From positions 49,251 through 113,250 of the IMG/VR virus record IMGVR_UViG_2718218135_000001: a DNA stretch of 64,000 nt; one strand, given 5' to 3'. The translations under genes and the position numbers were made by a program. Of the stretch, positions 52,476 through 64,000 are shown piece by piece (positions within the stretch are counted from its first letter, which is position 1; every line of letters starts with the position of its first letter). This DNA comes from a virus (taxonomy: Duplodnaviria > Heunggongvirae > Uroviricota > Caudoviricetes). The notes beneath the pieces were generated by a model. It worked only from the letters and a program-made list of their open reading frames with translations. It was not told where the DNA came from and made no database searches.

Positions 52476-53033
52476 TGCGCAAATTTTTTCGCAGTCTTGC
52501 GAGTGACTGAGTGAGCGAGTAACTCTCTCCACCTCATGAATGTCGCCCAACGATCTTATACGCATGGCAAGATTCCACGTACTCAATGTGCGCGCGTTAC
52601 GCACCAGTTCTTCCCGTGCTTTTTCGTCTTTGCTGTCAAGACGACCGCAGTCGTTCAACCATTTAGCGACTTCCGCCCAGTCCCAGAGTGGAGACTGACC
52701 GCTGATACGCTGAACAGGGCAAGGAAAATCACCTTTGCCACGTAATCCGTCTTTAAGCAGAGTAATAGCCTGGCGCGTTAAGCCAGAGAGTTGAGCAATA
52801 TCGCTCAAGCCTACCAGTGCTGAATCTACCGATTCCACCACTGCGCCAATGCCTGCTGTTTCAATATCAAGGATTGCCGATTCGATTGCTTCATCTAAAG
52901 ATTTAGCTTCTCGGTCAAATTCTACATACACTGAGTTTCCGTAGTAGCAAATGAGCGCATCATCGCAACCGTGGCTATACAGAGCATCTGCGACTACGCA
53001 GTACTGACTACAGGTTATCAGAATTATCCCCAT
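52473..53033 (-). CDS. hypothetical protein with C-terminal HTH-like region
   Basis: 186-aa ORF filling otherwise empty 0.7-kb interval; LSDIAQLSGLTRQAITLLKDG HTH-like. Confidence 0.35.
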   Translation of the reverse strand: MGIILITCSQYCVVADALYSHGCDDALICYYGNSVYVEFDREAKSLDEAIESAILDIETAGIGAVVESVDSALVGLSDIAQLSGLTRQAITLLKDGLRGKGDFPCPVQRISGQSPLWDWAEVAKWLNDCGRLDSKDEKAREELVRNARTLSTWNLAMRIRSLGDIHEVERVTRSLSHSQDCEKICA

Positions 53034-53142
53034 TTACATCAGCTTATCTACGTCAGCCCTCAAGTTCTTCAGCAAGCCAGCTCCACCGCCTGATTCCAAC
53101 ATGATAGAATTGATATACTAAAATAAGTATATAGATAACATT

Positions 53143-53574
53143 ATGAGCACCGATATCTACGAAAAAATCATGTCCGATCTGGAGTTCGACCGCGACAATC
53201 TGGAGGAAGTCTGGCGTCAGCAACCGCGTCTGTTGATGGAGTATGGCTCTAAGCTGGCACGGGCAGAACGTGAGGTTGCAGATGCAAAACTCTCTCTCGA
53301 CGCGATCGAGGCAAAAATCTATGACAACGAGCGTAAGAGCTTGAGTATGAATGGAATTAAGTTTAATGAATCCGTACTGGAAGCGAAGGTTAGAACCAAC
53401 CCGCAATACCTCGCAAAGCGCCAGAAACTCGACGATGCTCGACACATTGCAGACCTGTACAAGCACGCTGTAGCCGCCTTCTCCCACCGCCGCGATATGA
53501 TTGTCCAGGCGTCGAAGATGGCTATCGTAGAGATAGAGCGTCTGGGGGCCGAACGATTCCATTTACCCCGTTAA
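53143..53574 (+). CDS. hypothetical coiled-coil protein
   Basis: 143-aa charged helical ORF; preferred over overlapping antisense ORF. Confidence 0.35.
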   Translation: MSTDIYEKIMSDLEFDRDNLEEVWRQQPRLLMEYGSKLARAEREVADAKLSLDAIEAKIYDNERKSLSMNGIKFNESVLEAKVRTNPQYLAKRQKLDDARHIADLYKHAVAAFSHRRDMIVQASKMAIVEIERLGAERFHLPR

Positions 53575-53583
53575 TTTATGCTA

Positions 53584-53608
53584 GATAGTAAGTAAGCACT
53601 GATCTATC
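53584..53608. promoter_or_regulatory. conserved intergenic motif A copy (GATAGTAAGTAAGCACTGATCTATC)
   Basis: GATAG...CTATC outer arms plus TAAGTAAG core; upstream of SSB-like gene. Confidence 0.45.
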
Positions 53609-53693
53609 ATTCTTCTCGCTCGAAAGAGCCACGAACAAACGAACGCCCAATGCGCATAGCGCCAATGGCCACAATCACAACAAGGAGAAATAC

Positions 53694-54710
53694 ATGTCTA
53701 AGTCATTACTTGATCTGCTTAACAAGACCCGTGGCGATATTGCTTCCAAACGTGGCAATAACATTGATTTGACCCGTCTGAAAGATGGCAATAACTATCT
53801 GCGCATTTTTCCGAACAAGGACGATCCGAATGGCGTGTTCTTCCAGACTTTCGGTATGCACTACGTTAAGCATCAGAATGAGGAAGGCAAAGATGTAACC
53901 ACCGCCTATATCTGCGAACAACACACCCACGGCCACGCTTGCCAGCTGTGTGAGATGGTTATGGAAGGTCGCGCTCGCTTTAAGGGCAACAAAGCGATGG
54001 AAGAGCGCATTAATAGTATGCGTGCTACGCCGCGTTATCTGGTCAACGGTGTTCTGTCTGCGCGTGAAGACTTTGCGGACGCAGAGAAATGCCAGCTGAT
54101 TGAGCTGCCGTCTACGGTCTTCGACGATATCTGCAAAGTGATGTCCGAAGATATTGCGGACGATATTGGCAACCCACTGAGCAAAGAAGAAGGCTATGCG
54201 TTCCTGATTAAACGCACCGGTTCCGGTCGTGACACCAAGTACGACGTATCCCCGAAACGTAAAGTCTACAAAGGCGACATTCCTGAGAAGCTCTGGACTA
54301 CCCAACACGATCTGATCGCATATGCGAACCAGGCTGACGAAACTCGTTTGCTGTCCACGACTCGCACTATGGGTCGTCTGATTGGTATTGCGGCTCCGGC
54401 AGCAACTATGTCCTCACCAGCCATTTCTTCCGCTGCAAAATCAGCCGCAGCTGGACTGCCAGGCTTTGGCTCTATCACTGGTCATACGGAAGGCGCAGCT
54501 GCTGTCGCTACAGCACATACTCCGGCGCCAGAGTCCACCAGCCTGGTTGATGAAGAGATCCTGCGTGCCGCTGAAGCTGAGTTCAAACCGGAAGAAGCGA
54601 AAGCTCCGGAAGCCACCGAAGCCGCAAGTGCTTCAGCATCTGCTGCCGCTGCATCTGTACCAGCTGATGAAGGTCTCGATGACCTGCTGGCTGAACTGGA
54701 CGCTCTGTAA
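53694..54710 (+). CDS. single-stranded DNA-binding protein (T4 gp32-like architecture)
   Basis: His/Cys zinc motif EQHTHGHACQLC, Ala/Ser-rich linker and acidic C-terminal tail DEGLDDLLAELDAL; AAGGAG RBS. Confidence 0.5.
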   Translation: MSKSLLDLLNKTRGDIASKRGNNIDLTRLKDGNNYLRIFPNKDDPNGVFFQTFGMHYVKHQNEEGKDVTTAYICEQHTHGHACQLCEMVMEGRARFKGNKAMEERINSMRATPRYLVNGVLSAREDFADAEKCQLIELPSTVFDDICKVMSEDIADDIGNPLSKEEGYAFLIKRTGSGRDTKYDVSPKRKVYKGDIPEKLWTTQHDLIAYANQADETRLLSTTRTMGRLIGIAAPAATMSSPAISSAAKSAAAGLPGFGSITGHTEGAAAVATAHTPAPESTSLVDEEILRAAEAEFKPEEAKAPEATEAASASASAAAASVPADEGLDDLLAELDAL

Positions 54711-54726
54711 TCCCATAACGTAACCA

Positions 54727-54755
54727 GTAAGGCGTCTGCGGACGCCTTACTTTTT
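54727..54755 (+). terminator. rho-independent terminator
   Basis: GTAAGGCGTC-TGCG-GACGCCTTAC followed by TTTTT. Confidence 0.65.
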
Positions 54756-54770
54756 GGAAGGAGTGTACCG

Positions 54771-55715
54771 GTGAATTATCTCTTTGTGGACGGTAACAGC
54801 CTGGGCTATTACCACCAGCAATCCGACAAATTACACAACGGCGAGATGGAAGTTCAGGCGGTTTTTGGCTTCGTGAAGAACGTTCGTCGTTACGCCTCAA
54901 TTCTCCATGCCCGGCCAATGATCTTGTGGGATGGATTCAGCGACAAACGTCGCGACTTCTACCCGGAGTACAAAGCGAACCGCGACGACGACCCGGACAT
55001 GAAGAAGATGAAAGAAGGCTTTGCCATCCAGAAGCCGTACATCTTGAAAATGATGACCGCGCTGGGCGTTAACCAACTCATTGCAAAGGACGCAGAAGCG
55101 GATGACCTGGCTGGAATGCTGGTCTCTCGTCTGGCTCCGCAGCCGACCGTCGATCACATCTACCTGCTGACTGGCGATGGCGACTGGCTCCAGCTTGTTC
55201 GTGAGAACGTGAGCTGGATAAGCCTGCGTGAAGACGCCAAGCACAAGCAGGTGAACTTCGAACAGTTCGCAGAGCTGACCGGTCTGCCGACCCCACGCGC
55301 GTTTCTGGAAGCGAAAGCGTTGCAGGGCGATAACTCGGACAACATCAAAGGCGTAGGTGGCATTGGTGATGGTGGCGCGAAAGAGCTGCTTCATGAATGG
55401 GGAAGCGTGGCCGCAATGGTACGCGGCATTAACGACGGTTCCATTGTCATCAACAAAGGTCGCTATAAGACGGCATTCAACAAGCTGGCAAAGAACGCCT
55501 TCAACGAGAAGACGGGCTGCCGGATGCTCGAAGCCTTTAAGCGCAACATGATGCTGATGAACCTTATCGACACAAAATTCCCACCCAGCGAAATCGAGTC
55601 GATTAAAGGCGCACGCGATATGAGCGCCTTTGAACAGATGTGTTACGAGCTGAATTTCCGTTCGTTTCTGGAAGATCTGGAAGTGTTTGTTCTGCCGTTT
55701 GAGAGGTATTGCTGA
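54771..55715 (+). CDS. 5'-3' exonuclease / flap endonuclease (FEN, PolI N-terminal-like)
   Basis: N-terminal YLFVDGNSLGYYHQ and H3TH-like KGVGGIGDGGAKELL; GTG start with GGAAGGAG RBS. Confidence 0.7.
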   Translation: MNYLFVDGNSLGYYHQQSDKLHNGEMEVQAVFGFVKNVRRYASILHARPMILWDGFSDKRRDFYPEYKANRDDDPDMKKMKEGFAIQKPYILKMMTALGVNQLIAKDAEADDLAGMLVSRLAPQPTVDHIYLLTGDGDWLQLVRENVSWISLREDAKHKQVNFEQFAELTGLPTPRAFLEAKALQGDNSDNIKGVGGIGDGGAKELLHEWGSVAAMVRGINDGSIVINKGRYKTAFNKLAKNAFNEKTGCRMLEAFKRNMMLMNLIDTKFPPSEIESIKGARDMSAFEQMCYELNFRSFLEDLEVFVLPFERYC

Positions 55716-55981
55716 TGCTGAAATCCATCATTAATGGCGGGGCAACTACGCCAACCATGCTGGCAAAGGAGATTGTTTTCTGCCACGGCGAGCACGCTGT
55801 GGTAGCGCTGCCGAACATTCTGGGCGCTGCTGGCATTTCTGCTACTGAGCGTGAGTTCGCGCTGGTCAGTGAGCAGGTCGTGAAGATCATCGCTCGCGTC
55901 GCCAAACACCTGAACCACGACGCAATCAAGTTTGACGAAGCCGCTGCTTCGAAGCGAATCAACGAATCAAAAGGAGCCTAA
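55715..55981 (+). CDS. hypothetical small protein
   Basis: ATG overlapping FEN stop; 88 aa. Confidence 0.3.
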   Translation: MLKSIINGGATTPTMLAKEIVFCHGEHAVVALPNILGAAGISATEREFALVSEQVVKIIARVAKHLNHDAIKFDEAAASKRINESKGA

Positions 55982-55983
55982 TC

Positions 55984-58323
55984 ATGGCAAAAGGCAAATC
56001 CGCACTGGCACTGGCGCTGAAAAAGAAAATCGGCAGCAATGACGAGATTCAGAAGGTCTCCCACTGGATTGACTCCGGTTTCCCTCCACTGAACAAAGCC
56101 ATTTCCGGACGTTACGACGGTGGTTTTCCGTGTGGGCGTATCGTTGAAGTCTTCGGGCCACCAAGCGCGGGGAAATGTGTTACCGCAGACACCATGCTGC
56201 TGACGGAGCGTGGAATTGTAACAGTGAAAGAACTGTTTGAGATTGAGGGGCACAAAGCAACATGCACTACTCGCGATGTAGAGCATAACGTTGGACTCAT
56301 CAATGAAAATGGCGTGATAGAGAAGACCTCACACCTGACATGGAACAACCGTCGCAAATTCAAGCGCATTAAGCTGGCATCAGGGGGTTACATCGAGGCT
56401 ACGTTCCGTCACCCAATTCGTGTGGTTGACGACTTAGGCAATATCGTCTGGCGGTATGCTGAAAAAATCAGTGTAGGCGACACGATTCCTTCAATGGTTG
56501 GCACACATCAATTCGGCGATCAGCACTTGGATGCCAATATCGCAAAACTGATGGGCTATTTAATTGCTGACGGATACGTGGCCTCTGAAAATTCTGTGCA
56601 TTTTTCTAACACAGATCCATTCATCAAGGATGAGTACTACCGCCTCATTTCGCTGGTATCAGACAAGATGCCAGTTACGAGAAAACATAACGGCTCGGAA
56701 GACCATGTGCTGTTTAGCAAAGAGGTGCGTTCGCTGCTTTTTAAAGAATATGGTCTGGAGTATGAGAAAGCTGCTGGCAAGCAGGTTCCGTTGAGTGTGC
56801 GTCGCGCCAATAGCGAGGCTCAAATTGCATTCCTTCGCGGCTACTTTGAGCTGGAATGCCACGTCAATGATGGTCGCTGCATTGAGGTTGTGAGCGCGAG
56901 TGGGCTGCTGCTACAGCAAATTCGCCTCATGCTCCTGAATCTGGGGATTACGTCAACTATCTCTGAAAAACACGTCGCAGGTTATAAAAACATATATTAC
57001 CGGCTGTCATTCAGTGGCTCTAACTACGACCTTTTCCTGTCAACGATTGGGTTCGAGTCTCCGGCTCGTTTAGCAGTGGCAACCAAACGGGACATTAGTT
57101 TTGACCGCACTTATTTAGGCTACGTTCCGCACATCAGCGGCTTAGTGAAATCACTCTACGAGTCACTCACCAAGACCTCTCGTAAAGACTACGTTCTGGT
57201 AGATCACGTTATTGGCCGCGGCGATCGTGTCGGAATAGACAAACTGCGAGAAATCTATGTCTCCTTCATTGGCAGAAAGAATCGTTTTAACGAGCATCTG
57301 TTTGCACAACTGGCAGCGGTAATTGACTCTAACTTGTTCTACGACGAAGTCGTGGCTATTGAGGAAGGTGAAGCACCAACGTTCGACGTAGCGATGCCGG
57401 AAACACACTCTTTCTGGTCTAACGGGATTATCAGCCACAACACATTCCTCGCGACGGCTGCGATGGTGTCAGCACAAAAACAGGATGGTCTGGCCGTATT
57501 CCTTGACCACGAAAACAGTTTCGACGTTGGTCTGGCGGTAGCGAACGGACTGAACGCCGACGAAGACGACGGTCAGTGGGTCTACAAACAGCCGGATACC
57601 TTCGAAGACTCCGTAGAGCTGATCGGCACAATCCTCAAGCTGGTGCGCGACGAAGAGCTTATTCCGGAAACAGCCCCTATCTGCATCGTAGCCGACTCTC
57701 TGGCGTCGATGGTTCCGAACTCGAAGGCTGAGAAGTTCGACAAGATGGCAGAAGGCACTGCGAAGGACAAAGATCAGCTGAACATGAACGACAACACGGC
57801 GCTGGCGCGCGCGACAAGTGCGAACTTCCCTACTCTGGCGCTTTGGGCGCGTAAGTACAACGCGTGCATCATCTTCTTGAACCAGGTGCGTACCAAAATT
57901 GGTGTGATGTTTGGCGATCCGACTACGTCTCCGGGTGGCGACTCTCCGAAGTTCTACGCGTCGGTGCGCATCCGTCTGGGTGCATCCGTCATGAAGGATG
58001 GCAAAGAGAAGATCGGACAGGACGTTGGCGCCGAGTGCATTAAAAACAAAGTCGCGCCTCCGTTTGGCAAATGCTCATGGAAATTCTACTTCGACCCGAC
58101 TCGCGGGCTGGACGTCGTCGAGTCTCTGGTTGAATACATGCTGGAGGAAGGATACCTGCCCAAGAGCGCCAGCGGGCGTGTGGAAATTGGCGAGAAGAAA
58201 TACACCAAATCACAGATCGTCGAGATGTACCGGGAGAAGCCATTAGCTGAAATCATTGCTGCGTTACAGGCAATAGATGACAGGCGCGAGAAGACATCAC
58301 CGACAGATGAATTAGAAGATTAA
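55984..58323 (+). CDS. RecA-family recombinase (UvsX/Sak4-like) precursor containing an intein
   Basis: Exteins give GPPSAGK|T Walker A, FLDHENSFD, IVADSLASM, PGGDSPKFYASVRIRL RecA-like motifs; AAAAGGAG RBS. Confidence 0.75.
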   Translation: MAKGKSALALALKKKIGSNDEIQKVSHWIDSGFPPLNKAISGRYDGGFPCGRIVEVFGPPSAGKCVTADTMLLTERGIVTVKELFEIEGHKATCTTRDVEHNVGLINENGVIEKTSHLTWNNRRKFKRIKLASGGYIEATFRHPIRVVDDLGNIVWRYAEKISVGDTIPSMVGTHQFGDQHLDANIAKLMGYLIADGYVASENSVHFSNTDPFIKDEYYRLISLVSDKMPVTRKHNGSEDHVLFSKEVRSLLFKEYGLEYEKAAGKQVPLSVRRANSEAQIAFLRGYFELECHVNDGRCIEVVSASGLLLQQIRLMLLNLGITSTISEKHVAGYKNIYYRLSFSGSNYDLFLSTIGFESPARLAVATKRDISFDRTYLGYVPHISGLVKSLYESLTKTSRKDYVLVDHVIGRGDRVGIDKLREIYVSFIGRKNRFNEHLFAQLAAVIDSNLFYDEVVAIEEGEAPTFDVAMPETHSFWSNGIISHNTFLATAAMVSAQKQDGLAVFLDHENSFDVGLAVANGLNADEDDGQWVYKQPDTFEDSVELIGTILKLVRDEELIPETAPICIVADSLASMVPNSKAEKFDKMAEGTAKDKDQLNMNDNTALARATSANFPTLALWARKYNACIIFLNQVRTKIGVMFGDPTTSPGGDSPKFYASVRIRLGASVMKDGKEKIGQDVGAECIKNKVAPPFGKCSWKFYFDPTRGLDVVESLVEYMLEEGYLPKSASGRVEIGEKKYTKSQIVEMYREKPLAEIIAALQAIDDRREKTSPTDELED
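56176..57441 (+). other. intein with LAGLIDADG homing-endonuclease domain, inserted in RecA P-loop
   Basis: Begins with Cys (CVTADTMLL), ends SHN followed by +1 Thr; LAGLIDADG-like blocks LMGYLIADGYV and FLRGYFELECH; length 1266 nt = 422 codons in frame. Confidence 0.7.
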
Positions 58324-58328
58324 TTTTC

Positions 58329-58353
58329 AGGCGTCCGAATGGACGCCTTTATA
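58329..58353 (+). terminator. rho-independent terminator after recombinase gene
   Basis: AGGCGTCC-GAAT-GGACGCCT followed by TTTAT. Confidence 0.6.
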
Positions 58354-58413
58354 CCTTGAAAATATATAATCACTTACTTATCATCTACGCACAATAGCCA
58401 CATAGGAAAACAC

Positions 58414-58614
58414 ATGATCAAACTCTATCTGATGGCAGTGGCTACAGGTATATCTGTAGTTTTCATCTACTGTTTGCTGGTTCCGTCGCTGATCTCGGCT
58501 AAAAGCGATATTGCCGTAATGCTTGGAATCATTGTTGCTTTTGGCGCTCCTGTTATCGGCTTTAATGTTGGTCGTAACTTTCTGAAGTCACTAATTAATT
58601 CGAAGGGGAAGTAA
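58414..58614 (+). CDS. small membrane protein
   Basis: 66 aa, two hydrophobic helices; AGGAAAACAC RBS region. Confidence 0.3.
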   Translation: MIKLYLMAVATGISVVFIYCLLVPSLISAKSDIAVMLGIIVAFGAPVIGFNVGRNFLKSLINSKGK

Positions 58615-58617
58615 GTA

Positions 58618-58809
58618 ATGAAGAAAGGTTTACTGGCAGTGATCGTGGCTGCTGTTTGCACAATGGGTCTTACAGGCTGCGATCGTGTTGAGCCTGGGTA
58701 CGTTGGCATCAAAGTAAACAAATTGGGTGAAGACAAAGGTATCGGTGAAGTTGTCGGCGTTGGCCGTCAGTGGACTGGTCTGAATACCGAGCTGTACACC
58801 TCTCTTTAA
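58618..58809 (+). CDS. small lipoprotein
   Basis: Signal peptide with lipobox LTGC; 63 aa; translationally coupled to upstream small gene. Confidence 0.4.
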   Translation: MKKGLLAVIVAAVCTMGLTGCDRVEPGYVGIKVNKLGEDKGIGEVVGVGRQWTGLNTELYTSL

Positions 58810-58880
58810 GTCATCTTAAATGACTCTGAGGTGTCTGTTAAACCTGTGGCGATTCAGTCTATTAAACCTGTGGCGATTCA
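58797..58880. repeat. inverted copy of IS3-family left terminus (60 bp, 1 mismatch vs 37160-37219) plus 24-bp tandem duplication of the terminal segment
   Basis: CACCTCTCTTTAAGTCATCTTAAATGACTCTGAGGTGTCTGTTAAACCTGTGGCGATTCA is reverse complement of 37160-37219; GTCTATTAAACCTGTGGCGATTCA repeated directly at 58857-58880. Confidence 0.6.
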
Positions 58881-59041
58881 CTTTATGGTGTCATAAACTT
58901 AAATCTAGCGCCGGGTAGAACAAGTTAATCGAACGATGTAGCGGCCATTTAGGCGTTACAGAAAGAACAGAATTTTAAATTTATAGTGAAGCCGTTGCAG
59001 CAACTTTGTGGGGTGCAACCAACACTGAACAGGAAAAGAAA

Positions 59042-61474
59042 ATGGATCATAGTGTACATAACAAGCTCATCTCATTTATATGGAACATTGCCGACGACTG
59101 TTTACGTGATGTGTACGTTCGCGGTAAGTACCGCGATGTGATTTTACCTATGGTGGTATTACGACGTTTAGATACGTTACTTGAACCCACCAAAGAAGCC
59201 GTGCTTGAAGAGGTCAAGTTCCAAAAAGAAGAGATGCAAGCCACGGAGCTTGATGATGAACCATTGAAGGCGGCTAGTGGTTATGTTTTTTACAATACAT
59301 CTAAATGGACCCTGAAATCCCTGTTCAACACCGCAACGAATAACCAACAGATATTACTCGCCAACTTTGAAGAGTACCTGCTTGGCTTTAGCGATAATGT
59401 TAAAGAAATCATTGAATGCTTTAACCTCAAGTCGCAAATTCGTCACATGGCCTCAAAGCAAGTCCTTCTTGATGTCGTCGAAAAGTTTGTTTCCCCTTAC
59501 ATCAACTTAACTCATGAAACGATCGAAGACCCAGATGGCAACAAGATGCCAGCCCTTACTAACCTGGGTATGGGGTACGTGTTCGAAGAGTTGATCCGTA
59601 AGTTCAACGAGGAGAATAACGAAGAAGCCGGTGAGCACTTTACACCTAGGGAAGTGATTGAGCTGATGACACACTTGGTTTTTGACCCAGTGAAAGAGCA
59701 GCTACCATTGACCATGACCGTTTACGACCCTGCGTGTGGTAGCGGTGGTATGCTCACTGAATCTCAAAACTTCATTGAAGAGAAATACCCGAACGACAGC
59801 CGAGATATTTACCTTTACGGCAAAGAGATCAATGACGAGACCTACGCGATTTGTAAATCGGACATGATGATCAAAGGTAACAACCCTGAGAACATCAAGG
59901 TAGGCTCAACCTTGTCTACCGACGAGTTTGCGGCTTCTCGCTTTGACTTTATGTTGTCTAACCCGCCATACGGTAAGAGTTGGGCGTCTGAACAGAAGTA
60001 CATTAAAGACGGCAGTGATGTGATTGACCCGCGTTTTAAGGTTAGCCTGAAAGACTATTGGGGAAATCTCGAAGTGGTGGATGCCACGCCACGTTCGAGT
60101 GATGGCCAGCTGCTTTTCTTAATGGAGATGGTCAACAAGATGAAAGATCCGAGCGTAAGTCCATTAGGCAGCCGGATTGCCTCTGTTCATAACGGCTCAT
60201 CGCTCTTTACCGGCGATGCGGGCGGTGGCGAAAGTAATATTCGTCGCTTCATCATTGAAAACGACATGCTAGATGCCATCGTTCAGTTACCTAATAACCT
60301 GTTCTATAACACTGGCATTACCACTTACATTTGGGTGTTGAACAACAATAAACCTGAGGCGCGTAAAGGTAAGGTGCAATTAATTGATGCCAGCTTGCTC
60401 TACCGTAAGTTGCGCAAGAACTTAGGTAACAAAAACTGCGAATTTGCGCCTGAGCACATCACGGAAATTACCGATACTTACCTCGCGTGTAAGGATGTTG
60501 AAAGAGCACTGGATGCAAACAATGATCCTGTTGGCATCGCCAGTAAGGTATTCAGCAATGACGATTTTGGCTACTACAAAGTCACTATAGAGCGCCCAGA
60601 TCGCCGCAAAGCCAAGTTTACTCAAGACGCAATAGCCCCACTGCGTTTTGATAAGCAACTTAGTGAAGTGATGGAGTACGTGTACGCAGAGCACGGCGAA
60701 CGTGTTTACGAAAAAACTGGCTACGGGTCAGATCAGAAAAAGAGCTTCTTAAAATCCATCGAGAAAGACATTCTTTCTTGGTGTGAAGATAACGACATCA
60801 GTCTCAATGCTAAGGCTAAGGCCAAACTGCTTGATGTGAAACACTGGCTGGCGCTAAAAGCATTGCTTGAAACTGCACAAACGCTGATGGCTGACATCGG
60901 TAGCATTGAATTTGATGACTTCAATAGCTTTAAAACCCAAGTTGATAAATCGCTAAAAGCCCATGCTATTAAGCTTTCAGCACCTGAGAAAAATGCCATT
61001 CTTCACGCGGTGAGCTGGTATGACGAAACCGCCAAGAAAGTGGTTAAAAAGGTAGTTAAATTAACGGGTGATAAATTAAACGACCTGCTGGAGCGCTATG
61101 AGTGTGAAGTCGCTGACTTGCCAGATTTTGGTTATTACCCCGTTCCTTCAGCAGAAGGCGGTAAAAAAGGCGAGTATATCACTTACGAGACCAATTCAGA
61201 CCTGCGAGATACAGAATCTGTTCCATTAAAGCAAAGCATTTACCAGTACTTCCTAGATGAAGTGAAGCCTCATGTCGATGAAGCATGGATAAACCTAGAT
61301 ACGGTAAAAATTGGCTATGAAATCAGCTTCAATAAGTATTTCTACCGTTATAAACCGCTGCGTAGTTTAGAAGAGGTCGCAACCGACATCATCAACCTAG
61401 AACAAAAAGCCGAAGGTCTCATTGCGCAGATATTGGGTGTTAAAGTGGCGGAAGTAAAAAAGGTTCAGGGGTAA
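59042..61474 (+). CDS. type I restriction-modification methyltransferase subunit (HsdM-like, long form)
   Basis: N6-adenine MTase motif IV NPPYG and motif I-like DPACGSGGML; followed by HsdS; ATG at 59042 preferred. Confidence 0.7.
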   Translation: MDHSVHNKLISFIWNIADDCLRDVYVRGKYRDVILPMVVLRRLDTLLEPTKEAVLEEVKFQKEEMQATELDDEPLKAASGYVFYNTSKWTLKSLFNTATNNQQILLANFEEYLLGFSDNVKEIIECFNLKSQIRHMASKQVLLDVVEKFVSPYINLTHETIEDPDGNKMPALTNLGMGYVFEELIRKFNEENNEEAGEHFTPREVIELMTHLVFDPVKEQLPLTMTVYDPACGSGGMLTESQNFIEEKYPNDSRDIYLYGKEINDETYAICKSDMMIKGNNPENIKVGSTLSTDEFAASRFDFMLSNPPYGKSWASEQKYIKDGSDVIDPRFKVSLKDYWGNLEVVDATPRSSDGQLLFLMEMVNKMKDPSVSPLGSRIASVHNGSSLFTGDAGGGESNIRRFIIENDMLDAIVQLPNNLFYNTGITTYIWVLNNNKPEARKGKVQLIDASLLYRKLRKNLGNKNCEFAPEHITEITDTYLACKDVERALDANNDPVGIASKVFSNDDFGYYKVTIERPDRRKAKFTQDAIAPLRFDKQLSEVMEYVYAEHGERVYEKTGYGSDQKKSFLKSIEKDILSWCEDNDISLNAKAKAKLLDVKHWLALKALLETAQTLMADIGSIEFDDFNSFKTQVDKSLKAHAIKLSAPEKNAILHAVSWYDETAKKVVKKVVKLTGDKLNDLLERYECEVADLPDFGYYPVPSAEGGKKGEYITYETNSDLRDTESVPLKQSIYQYFLDEVKPHVDEAWINLDTVKIGYEISFNKYFYRYKPLRSLEEVATDIINLEQKAEGLIAQILGVKVAEVKKVQG

Positions 61475-61480
61475 GTCGTT

Positions 61481-62818
61481 ATGATGAAGATTTCTGAAAT
61501 GCCGAAATATGACGATTATGTAGATTCTGGGGTTGAATGGTTGGGACGAGTTCCTTCTCATTGGCAGATTATAAGATTGAAAAATACGATCAATGGATGC
61601 GTCAATGGCTTATGGGGGGCTGATCCAAATGGTAAAGATGAATTGGTTGTAGTAAGAGTTTCGGATTTTGATGAGCAAAAATTGAATGTTTCTGATGAAA
61701 AACTTACTTATCGTTCCATACCTGAAAACGAACGGAAAAGTCGCCTATTGAAATTTGGTGATTTATTGATAGAAAAATCAGGTGGAGGCGATAAAACTTT
61801 AGTTGGTAGAGTTGTTTTGTTTGATAAAAGCTATACGGCAGTCACGTCAAACTTCGTCGCAAAAATGACTCCAAAAAATTGGGTAAACCACAGTTTTTTA
61901 AAGTATGTATTTTTTAGTTTATATAGTCGAGGTGTCAATTACGTATCTATTAAGCAAACAACAGGTATCCAAAACCTTGATGCGAATTCGTATTTAAATG
62001 AAGTTTTCTGTTTTCCTGATGAATTTGTTCAGGCAGAGGTCGCCAACTTTCTTGACAAGAAAACCGCTCTAATCGACGAAGCGATTTCGATCAAAGAGCA
62101 GCAAATTAGCCTGCTGAAAGAGCGTAAGCAGATCATCATCCAACAGGCGGTGACCCAAGGGCTTGACCCGAATGTGCCAATGAAAGACTCCGGTATGGAT
62201 TGGATTGGGAAGATTCCGCAACACTGGAAATTAAAGCCTAATAAGTGCCTTTTCAAGTTAAAAAAATCATTGGTAGGAAAAAGATCTGGAGACTATGAGC
62301 TTCTATCTCTAACCCTAAAAGGGATAATTAAACGAGATATGGATAACCCAGAGGGGAAATTTCCAGCTGAGTTTAATACGTACCAAGAAGTTAGTGTCGG
62401 TGACTTTGTATTCTGTTTATTCGATGTAGAGGAAACCCCTAGAACTGTTGGTCTTTCTAAATTTAACGGAATGATTACTGGGGCCTATACGGTTTTTGAA
62501 CTTGATGAGAGTGTTAGTAAGGAATTCCTTTATTATTTTTATTTAAATTTAGACTCAAGAAAAATGATGAGACCATTGTATAAGGGTCTAAGAAATACCA
62601 TCTCAAAAGAGACTTTTTTGAGCTTTAAGTCATTTATACCACCTTTGAAAGAGCAAGAAGAGATCGTTGATTTTATTGAATATGAGGTTAATAAGATAGA
62701 TCTCACTATAGATGGGATATCCGAACAAATTGATAAAATAAAGGAATATAAGTCTTGTCTAATAAATGGTTCGGTCACAGGTAAAATTAAAGTTACGTCA
62801 GAAATGGCTGAGCGATAG
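61481..62818 (+). CDS. type I restriction-modification specificity subunit (HsdS)
   Basis: Two target-recognition domains separated by conserved central helical spacer; AT-rich codon usage. Confidence 0.7.
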   Translation: MMKISEMPKYDDYVDSGVEWLGRVPSHWQIIRLKNTINGCVNGLWGADPNGKDELVVVRVSDFDEQKLNVSDEKLTYRSIPENERKSRLLKFGDLLIEKSGGGDKTLVGRVVLFDKSYTAVTSNFVAKMTPKNWVNHSFLKYVFFSLYSRGVNYVSIKQTTGIQNLDANSYLNEVFCFPDEFVQAEVANFLDKKTALIDEAISIKEQQISLLKERKQIIIQQAVTQGLDPNVPMKDSGMDWIGKIPQHWKLKPNKCLFKLKKSLVGKRSGDYELLSLTLKGIIKRDMDNPEGKFPAEFNTYQEVSVGDFVFCLFDVEETPRTVGLSKFNGMITGAYTVFELDESVSKEFLYYFYLNLDSRKMMRPLYKGLRNTISKETFLSFKSFIPPLKEQEEIVDFIEYEVNKIDLTIDGISEQIDKIKEYKSCLINGSVTGKIKVTSEMAER

Positions 62819-62827
62819 GACGCGAGT

Positions 62828-63991
62828 ATGTTCACGGTAAATCATCAGACCAATAGGATTAGTCCGGTTAAGACGAAGAAGTTCAGTGAGTTGGGCTTTA
62901 CTGAGCGCAAGCATCTTCAGGAGTGGTTGGCACACGAACCTTCCGCACTCGGTGAAGAGTTGTTGATTATTCAAAAAGAGTTCGATGGCTTTGATGACAC
63001 CCGTGAACGCTTAGATTTACTGGCACTGGATAAAGATGGCAACTTGGTCATTATTGAAAACAAGCTGGACGACAGTGGCCGCGATGTGGTGTGGCAGGCG
63101 CTTAAATATGCCTCTTACTGTGCCAGTTTAACCAAAGCGCAAATAGTTGAAATTTATCAGCAGTACTTAGACCGCTATGAGCCTGTCACAGGAGAGGTAG
63201 ACCTGTTAAATGCCCCTGCAAGTGCCTCAGCTAGAATATGTGAGTTTTTGGATGCGCCCGATCTGGATGAGTTAAAGCTCAACCTGGGTAACAGCCAGCG
63301 CATCATGTTAGTTGCGGCAAACTTTCGCAAAGAAGTGACCAGCACCGCGCTGTGGTTATTGGGTCAAGGAATTAGCATTGCCTGCTTCAAAATCACGCCT
63401 TATTCACTGGGTGAACAGCTACTGATTAATATTGACCAGATCATCCCAACGCCGGAAGCGAAAGAGTTGATGATCGGCATTAATGCCAAGGAAGCGGAAG
63501 AAAAAACCACCGAAGTGGTACTAAAAAACCGCCATACGGTGCGGCGCGAATACTGGGAGCGTGCCTTAGAGGCGTTTCAGAAAAGCGCTTGCCAACTCTA
63601 TAACAACATTAGCCCAAGCAATGATCATTGGTTATCAGCAGGCTCAGGGTTAAGTGGGTGTCCGTATAACCTGATATTTCTGCAAAAAGAGCTTCGAGTA
63701 GAGCTTTGTATCAGCCGTGGGGTTACCGAAGAGAATAAATACCTTTTTGACTTGTTGAGTCAGTCCAAACAGGACATTGAACATACTTTTGGTGCAGAAC
63801 TTGAGTGGATGAGGCTGGATGAGAAGAAATCTTGCCGTATTCAGTTTTCGACCAAAGCTGATGGGTTTAACAAAGATACGTGGCCCCAAGCGGTTGCGTG
63901 GCACTTAGAGCAGATGACAAAGTTAGAAAAAGCCTTAAAAGGACCGCTGCAAAAAGCGGCTGAGGCAATGAAACAGAAGAATTTTGATTAA
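62828..63991 (+). CDS. PD-(D/E)xK-like nuclease-domain protein associated with RM locus (DUF4268/NucS-like, tentative)
   Basis: N-terminal RERLDLLALDKDGNLVIIENKLDD fits D...ExK nuclease signature; immediately downstream of hsdS. Confidence 0.35.
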   Translation: MFTVNHQTNRISPVKTKKFSELGFTERKHLQEWLAHEPSALGEELLIIQKEFDGFDDTRERLDLLALDKDGNLVIIENKLDDSGRDVVWQALKYASYCASLTKAQIVEIYQQYLDRYEPVTGEVDLLNAPASASARICEFLDAPDLDELKLNLGNSQRIMLVAANFRKEVTSTALWLLGQGISIACFKITPYSLGEQLLINIDQIIPTPEAKELMIGINAKEAEEKTTEVVLKNRHTVRREYWERALEAFQKSACQLYNNISPSNDHWLSAGSGLSGCPYNLIFLQKELRVELCISRGVTEENKYLFDLLSQSKQDIEHTFGAELEWMRLDEKKSCRIQFSTKADGFNKDTWPQAVAWHLEQMTKLEKALKGPLQKAAEAMKQKNFD

Positions 63992-64000
63992 GGGAACTTA

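Follow-up and report, generated by a model that had tools for sequence, protein, structure and literature searches.

Type I restriction-modification (RM) operons that house a further effector gene are already known, with direct experimental precedent in TgvAB and PrrC. TgvAB is encoded within a type I operon of the VPI-2 island of Vibrio cholerae and counters hypermodified phages without need of HsdR (PMC11411939), while the EcoprrI hsd operon, of type IC and on a mobile element, carries the gene for PrrC, an ABC-ATPase/tRNA anticodon nuclease dependent on the Hsd complex (PMC12707154). MdgA and MdgB, single-gene nucleases with a DUF4268 domain, protect Escherichia coli from phage T4 but not from the unmodified T4-GT7, and protection by MdgA extends to Mu; in purified form MdgA breaks down T4 DNA, and the substitution E77A abolishes its activity (PMC12366544; sequences in BioProject PRJNA1262520 and Zenodo record 15758252). 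DUF4268 is also found associated with or fused to GmrSD type IV enzymes (PMC4619093), and a survey has reported RM systems on SSU5-group phage-plasmids (10.1101/2025.09.12.675607). Here we describe a locus at the end of a 64,000-nucleotide stretch (the window) of a Caudoviricetes phage-plasmid of E. coli, positions 49,251 to 113,250 of IMG/VR record IMGVR_UViG_2718218135_000001, in which a protein of 387 amino acids (aa) with a nuclease domain and a DUF4268 domain is encoded directly after hsdS. The locus is a complete four-gene operon, hsdM-hsdS-(PD-(D/E)xK/DUF4268 nuclease)-hsdR. Its type I part is near certain; that it combines a complete type I operon with a separate, modification-dependent nuclease defence is in our view probable, though by no strong measure.

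A type I operon that continues past the window

Three open reading frames (ORFs) lie on the same strand at 59042-61474, 61481-62818 and 62828-63991, with gaps of 6 and 9 bases between them and a plausible ribosome-binding site ahead of each. A sequence-only reading of the window had assigned them to hsdM, hsdS and a 387-aa protein of a type I RM locus on a phage-plasmid, and both the subunit profiles, which match far beyond chance, and the Cyrano-like backbone bear this out. The features of the operon are as follows.

59042..61474, + strand: hsdM, N6-adenine methyltransferase subunit, 810 aa from ATG (Pfam and PADLOC profiles)
60503-61471, + strand: C-terminal module of HsdM, codons 488-810, family-specific and conserved, ~320 residues
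61481..62818, + strand: hsdS, specificity subunit, 445 aa (PADLOC Specificity_I full length, E 1.5e-133; Pfam Methylase_S)
62828..63991, + strand: embedded nuclease gene, 387 aa (Pfam DUF4268, PADLOC PDC-S11)
62828-63445, + strand: NucS-like PD-(D/E)xK domain, codons 1-206 (D63, E77, K79, Q90xxxY94)
63539-63943, + strand: DUF4268 domain, codons 238-372 (Pfam DUF4268)
63992..64000, + strand: first 9 of the 14 bases of the spacer before hsdR, with hsdR itself beyond the window
window-equivalent 64006-67023, + strand: hsdR, intact, 1005 aa, read outside the window in plasmid L093 (CP010244.1)

HsdM matches the Pfam families HsdM_N (E 8e-23) and N6_Mtase (E 2e-60) and, end to end, the PADLOC MTase_I model (E 1e-268); its motif I, DPACGSGG (229-236), and motif IV, NPPY (307-310), are both invariant in the aligned family. 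Comparison of hsdS with the sister plasmids confines the alignment to the ends and the centre (62040-62217) of the gene and so delimits two variable target-recognition domains (~61555-62039 and ~62218-62726) around conserved spacers. The sequence-only reading was right that hsdR does not directly follow hsdS and that the locus runs beyond the window, but the oddity implied by this arrangement dissolves, as hsdR is intact one gene further on. Its proposal to look for hsdR downstream, with absence over several kb as the sign of an orphan or inactive locus, is answered by the E. coli plasmid L093 (CP010244.1, 113,250 bp), which reproduces window 52828-64000 (11,173 bases) with 100% identity and presents hsdR after the 14-base spacer, with D155...E169-x-K171, GSGKS319 and DEAH431 all present. 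The 99.8% identical hsdR copy of the sister plasmid L001 matches Pfam HSDR_N, SWI2_SNF2/ResIII and T1R_D3. A fragment of an IS3-family (IS, insertion sequence) rve domain follows hsdR in L093.

The domains and motifs that define HsdM, HsdS and HsdR, shared with EcoKI and EcoR124I, are thus found for all three subunits. The locus differs from those enzymes in the ~320-residue C-terminal module of HsdM and in scores below the TIGRFAM cut-offs, HsdM reaching 108 bits against 243 for the equivalog model TIGR00497 and HsdR 212 against 285; the HsdM score points to a divergent subfamily, and the type I family to which the operon is assigned appears divergent but recognisable. On the evidence of the intact subunits and their motifs, HsdM and HsdS would methylate a bipartite site on resident DNA, and together with HsdR the complex would translocate and then cut incoming DNA that is unmethylated.

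That HsdM is longer than classical HsdM is correct: its 810 aa exceed the solved HsdM chains (499-544 aa) by ~270-300 residues. The length is no oddity of the locus as had been thought, since all 17 aligned relatives are ~800 aa long, and it is best described as a normal trait of this type I family. Both the C-terminal module and the DUF4268 domain are modelled with confidence, and a search with the module modelled alone matched no known structural relative. The module might represent a functional domain of a new kind, such as a docking platform or a sensor, and this could explain why diverse defence genes gather in the slot between hsdS and hsdR.

A NucS-like nuclease and its genomic company

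The 387-aa protein matches Pfam DUF4268 (E 2e-39), gives a weak NucS_C signal and aligns over its full length with the PADLOC model PDLC04913 (E 1.6e-182, 604.6 bits, residues 1-383 on profile positions 1-373 of 375), besides matching seven further models of the same class, PDC-S11. This is a computational candidate class, in which PADLOC already lists the gene type as a single-gene candidate; to our knowledge no experiment underlies the label. Among 1.84 billion representative proteins, 472 clusters matched at E<=1e-30, and the length of most relatives, 360-390 aa, indicates a conserved architecture. The D...ExK signature reported from the sequence proved real: when 55 diverse relatives that share 29-61% identity with the protein were aligned, E26, D63, K79, Q90 and Y94 were invariant and E77 was retained in 54, which makes up a PD-(D/E)xK motif with a QxxxY of RecB/NucS type. 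In the AlphaFold2 model (predicted local distance difference test, pLDDT, 94) a 43-residue helix (209-251) links the nuclease domain to the DUF4268 domain. A structure search gave NucS/EndoMS as the top match and also recovered Shedu SduA and Cas4/RecB-type nucleases. From its conserved residues and its model the protein looks functional as a nuclease. Three relatives (P0177, P0207 and P0222) each contain 3-5 DUF4268 domains in tandem, an arrangement suggestive of a modular unit for binding.

The likeness to NucS/EndoMS, the best structural match and one that shares the RecB-like PD-(D/E)xK core with QxxxY, invites the view that the protein is a DNA-repair endonuclease of that type without any role in defence. 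The alignment is limited to the nuclease core, the C-terminal half being DUF4268, and the scores fall well under the cut-offs (NucS_C, 16.3 against 24 bits in Pfam; NucS, 23.7 against 216 bits in NCBIfam). NucS/EndoMS serves mismatch repair, whereas the present gene resides in mobile defence islands and keeps 98-99% identity between distant genera, in neither respect resembling a housekeeping gene for repair. Identity as a NucS repair enzyme was rejected on these profile scores and the genomic context, and the chance that we would still allow it is negligible.

The question of whether the nuclease belongs to the type I enzyme was addressed through the context of 80 genome loci carrying relatives of the 387-aa gene, which divide as follows.

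33 of 80 loci: long-HsdM type I family
26 of 80 loci: distant type I family, HsdM ~27% identical and mostly 520-600 aa
10 of 80 loci: no type I system, with flanks of at least 5 kb on both sides
11 of 80 loci: no type I system, flank too short to judge

In loci that show both subunits the gene follows hsdM and precedes hsdR, in 29 and 15 loci (44 in all) of the two unrelated type I families. Lone copies lie between gyrA and a transporter gene or adjoin a tRNA synthetase gene, Tn7 TnsE, or NERD/KAP NTPase genes, and at locus L006 a 93%-identical copy has no type I system within 9 kb. Within the present family, moreover, the stretch between the DUF4268 gene and hsdR is occupied in turn by TgvAB-like GmrSD pairs, Schlafen/AlbA_2(-HATPase_c_4) proteins, an AAA_15/21 ATPase, RhuM-Fic and DUF3800 genes, a variety which marks the slot as a hotspot for independent passengers. 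The slot genes occupy the following intervals, and the TgvAB-like pairs adjoin the DUF4268 gene in the four loci of the first line.

L007 11161-14546; L012 11158-15999; L021 11161-14498; L056 11155-14522
L009 11180-12652; L031 11661-13642; L038 2754-3749; L039 2951-3661

Because it accompanies two unrelated type I families and also occurs without any, the 387-aa gene is most likely an autonomous module that favours this position rather than a type I subunit. The suggestion that an accessory gene might modulate or extend the RM activity is accordingly divided: modulation finds no footing, with kin of the gene in an unrelated type I family and outside type I systems altogether, and extension of coverage is retained as the work of an independent gene. 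An accessory subunit that modulates the type I enzyme or adds a cleavage activity to it would suit the shared operon, the spacing, which is as if translationally linked, and the observation that the whole VPI-2 cluster protected better than its embedded genes alone (PMC11411939). Against it, HsdR has an intact PD-(D/E)xK nuclease of its own, the gene keeps company with two unrelated type I families or with none, and other loci of the family hold different slot genes. The distribution across loci led us to discard a role as an RM subunit, and we judge the accessory form of it very improbable.

A looser tie would be that of a guard, held by the Hsd complex in the manner of PrrC and EcoprrI and released when an anti-restriction protein such as Ocr, ArdA or a Stp-like protein blocks the complex. 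The PrrC precedent (PMC12707154) speaks for such an arrangement, as do the position between hsdS and hsdR in those 44 loci of two unrelated families, the tight spacing within the operon and the likeness of the DUF4268 fold to protein-binding chaperones. PrrC depends on the Hsd complex, whereas for at least 10 relatives of the 387-aa protein the 5 kb to each side contain no type I system, among them the 93%-identical copy at L006; nor does the gene depend on the long HsdM, as it is also found beside HsdM of classical length, and MdgA needs no second gene and cleaves DNA by itself in vitro. Searches of the 387-aa protein with Pfam and PADLOC profiles found neither an ABC-type ATPase nor an anticodon nuclease domain. 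A guard of this kind thus seems doubtful, and its more elaborate form, in which the nuclease docks on the Hsd complex through the chaperone-like DUF4268 domain, more doubtful still, as is the separate idea that the C-terminal module of HsdM is a new docking or sensor domain.

What the nuclease may recognise

If the 387-aa protein is a separate single-protein defence, its NucS-like PD-(D/E)xK domain would cut DNA and DUF4268 would probably pick the substrate, which by analogy with MdgA and TgvAB would most likely be hypermodified phage DNA beyond the reach of the type I enzyme. Type I enzyme and nuclease would then give the lysogen layered protection against competing phages. Modification dependence is suggested by the MdgA/MdgB data, the match at residue 77, the association of DUF4268 with GmrSD and the embedding of TgvAB in a type I operon. 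With MdgA and MdgB the protein shares the form of a single-gene nuclease with DUF4268, and like MdgA it has a nuclease domain whose catalytic glutamate is numbered 77; the ExK glutamate bears this number in 43 of the 55 family members. MdgA originated from a metagenomic insert, and its description does not place it within a type I operon. VPI-2 provides the embedded layout, hsdM-hsdS-[embedded nuclease defence]-hsdR in one operon, and there the embedded part acts alone on hypermodified phages and complements the type I enzyme, as is proposed here. TgvAB itself is a two-protein system of the GmrSD family (DUF262/DUF1524, His-Me finger), in contrast to the single PD-(D/E)xK-DUF4268 protein found here, in which a profile search for the DUF262 (GmrSD_N) and DUF1524 domains found neither; both are present in neighbouring genes of related loci. 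The type IV enzymes PvuRts1I, MspJI and AspBHI likewise join a PD-(D/E)xK cleavage domain to a separate recognition domain, and their task, the cutting of modified phage DNA, is the one proposed here. On these analogies we hold modification dependence to be somewhat favoured.

Several observations weigh against this view and against the separateness of the two defences. The DUF4268 domain is folded like YbjN and the chaperones of type III secretion, that is, like protein binders, and its fold search revealed no resemblance to the modified-base readers SRA, EVE or PUA, so that, as modelled, it leaves the recognition of modified bases unexplained. Homology to MdgA is inferred solely from the domain they have in common and the agreement in residue number, and MdgA was reported to lack homology to known defences after a PADLOC hidden Markov model scan (PMC12366544); MdgA could therefore lie outside PDC-S11. 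The strong preference of the gene for the position between hsdS and hsdR would also fit a functional tie to the type I enzyme, and the type I operon has here lost its usual BrxR-type regulator.

The DUF4268 fold, which is that of no known modified-base reader, also lends substance to an autonomous nuclease of another kind, one that senses free DNA ends or another infection cue in a Shedu-like manner or that degrades DNA indiscriminately in abortive infection. Shedu SduA and Cas4/RecB-type nucleases are among its structure matches, and the gene is found alone and in varied contexts. The sole DUF4268 nucleases to have been tested, MdgA and MdgB, are nevertheless modification-dependent, DUF4268 is elsewhere fused to GmrSD type IV enzymes (PMC4619093) and TgvAB-like type IV genes share the same slot, and we therefore regard such a nuclease as possible but unlikely. 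A modification-dependent nuclease remains our preferred reading of the 387-aa protein.

An acquired island and its spread

The window has an SSU5/Cyrano-like phage-plasmid backbone, in which the RM island of ~8.9 kb replaces ~1.07 kb. Homology to phage Cyrano ends at window 58797, ~60 codons into a stomatin/SPFH lipoprotein gene, and returns at window-equivalent ~67743, past hsdR and the IS3-family rve fragment. The sequence-only reading had described the locus as clearly more AT-rich than the backbone and as abutting an IS-end scar, and both points hold: within the window the island has a G+C content (GC) of 42.6% against 48.8% for the rest (hsdS, 36.4%), a dip that is genuine yet moderate, and it starts with an IS3-family remnant at ~58797-58880. 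The left junction comprises the following features.

58618..58809, + strand: truncated stomatin/SPFH-like lipoprotein gene at the left island junction; a 63-codon ORF remains, and the intact Cyrano homologue CYRAN_57 is 831 bp
58797..~58880, no strand assigned: IS3-family terminal remnant
58878..58925, + strand: remnant of a BrxR/WYL-type regulator gene, last 16 codons (tblastn with the BrxR-like protein of L085, 75% identity, residues 289-304)

The junction stretch of ~60-66 bases is present in 1300 plasmid records and was recognised as an IS3-family terminal remnant because it stands directly upstream of an IS3-family orfA in L083. The remnant contains a tandem 24-nt duplication (58833-58856 and 58857-58880, units 96% identical). 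A full brxR-type gene lies directly 5' of hsdM in the V. cholerae locus L085, which resembles an integrative and conjugative element (ICE), and in at least 13 other loci; with only its last 16 codons kept here, the E. coli copies appear to have lost the operon's likely regulator through an IS3-family insertion. IS3-family fragments flank the island on both sides, the right-hand one being interrupted in sister plasmid L001 by an extra IS110 element, and the locus is best explained as an acquired island placed in the phage-plasmid by IS3-family elements. An Rfam scan of 58300-64000 matched no RNA family, and a promoter scan of the sequence gave fewer sites than in shuffled sequence, so that no promoter was assigned.

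Two further features of the backbone were recorded. A RecA-like recombinase gene at window 55984-58323 (+ strand) is split by an intein with a LAGLIDADG homing endonuclease (Pfam RecA, Intein_splicing and LAGLIDADG_3) and has a counterpart of the same size in phage Cyrano. A second AT-rich accessory island (31091-36856, - strand, GC 0.38-0.45) holds a chaperone-usher fimbrial operon, with genes for a subunit (31091-32221), an usher (32112-34604) and a PapD-like chaperone (34616-35350), as well as an IS3-family transposase (36041-36856).

The genes of the module occur in public records exactly, annotated as type I subunits and 'DUF4268 domain-containing protein'. The 387-aa protein is at least 98% identical in E. 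coli, several Vibrio species, Alteromonas, Morganella, Edwardsiella, Salmonella, Citrobacter and Enterobacter, and the gene is carried by 58 of 5426 complete E. coli genomes (39 chromosomal, 19 plasmid-borne). A search of a phage collection gave no close copy, just three distant partial matches, and the gene is therefore not a general phage gene. Across Vibrio ICEs, marine gammaproteobacteria and E. coli chromosomes that carry the module, HsdM, the nuclease and HsdR retain 95-99% identity, whereas HsdS is exchanged. At the DNA level hsdM and the DUF4268 gene share 91-98% identity with those of V. cholerae, Marinomonas, a Kangiellaceae metagenome-assembled genome and E. coli chromosomes, while with the same genomes hsdS aligns at its ends and centre alone; hsdR, in its L001 copy, shares 96% identity with that of V. 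cholerae and 99.9% with one from an E. coli chromosome. Across the 80 loci HsdS identity falls to 27-55% while HsdM and HsdR keep 65-98%, which matches the usual type I pattern of specificity swapping.

On the V. cholerae chromosome the module at L085 (2064-21164) reads, in order, rumA/umuC-like genes, brxR, hsdM, hsdS, the DUF4268 gene, hsdR, a cyclic-oligonucleotide-based anti-phage signalling system (CBASS) operon of SAVED-HNH and a DncV-like cyclase, and a TraI_2 relaxase gene. This would be the context of an ICE of SXT/R391 type, which fits the host range of the near-identical copies. On two E. coli chromosomes (L088, 16501-19649; L090, 16552-19649) an IS30-family transposase and a 541-aa EptA-like phosphoethanolamine transferase lie ~2.3 kb past the RM island, a pair that resembles the ISApl1-mcr-1 arrangement and is noted as a candidate likeness.

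Type I operons with embedded type IV-like genes having been documented already, the biology proposed here is of an expected kind. A temperate E. coli phage-plasmid would have acquired a ready-made, two-layer restriction module that it shares with Vibrio ICEs and marine bacteria, which is of relevance to the competition of phage-plasmids with other phages and to the spread of defence modules between mobile elements. The locus also offers a DUF4268 nuclease that is native to E. coli and easily cloned, and in which an MdgA-like dependence on modification may be probed.

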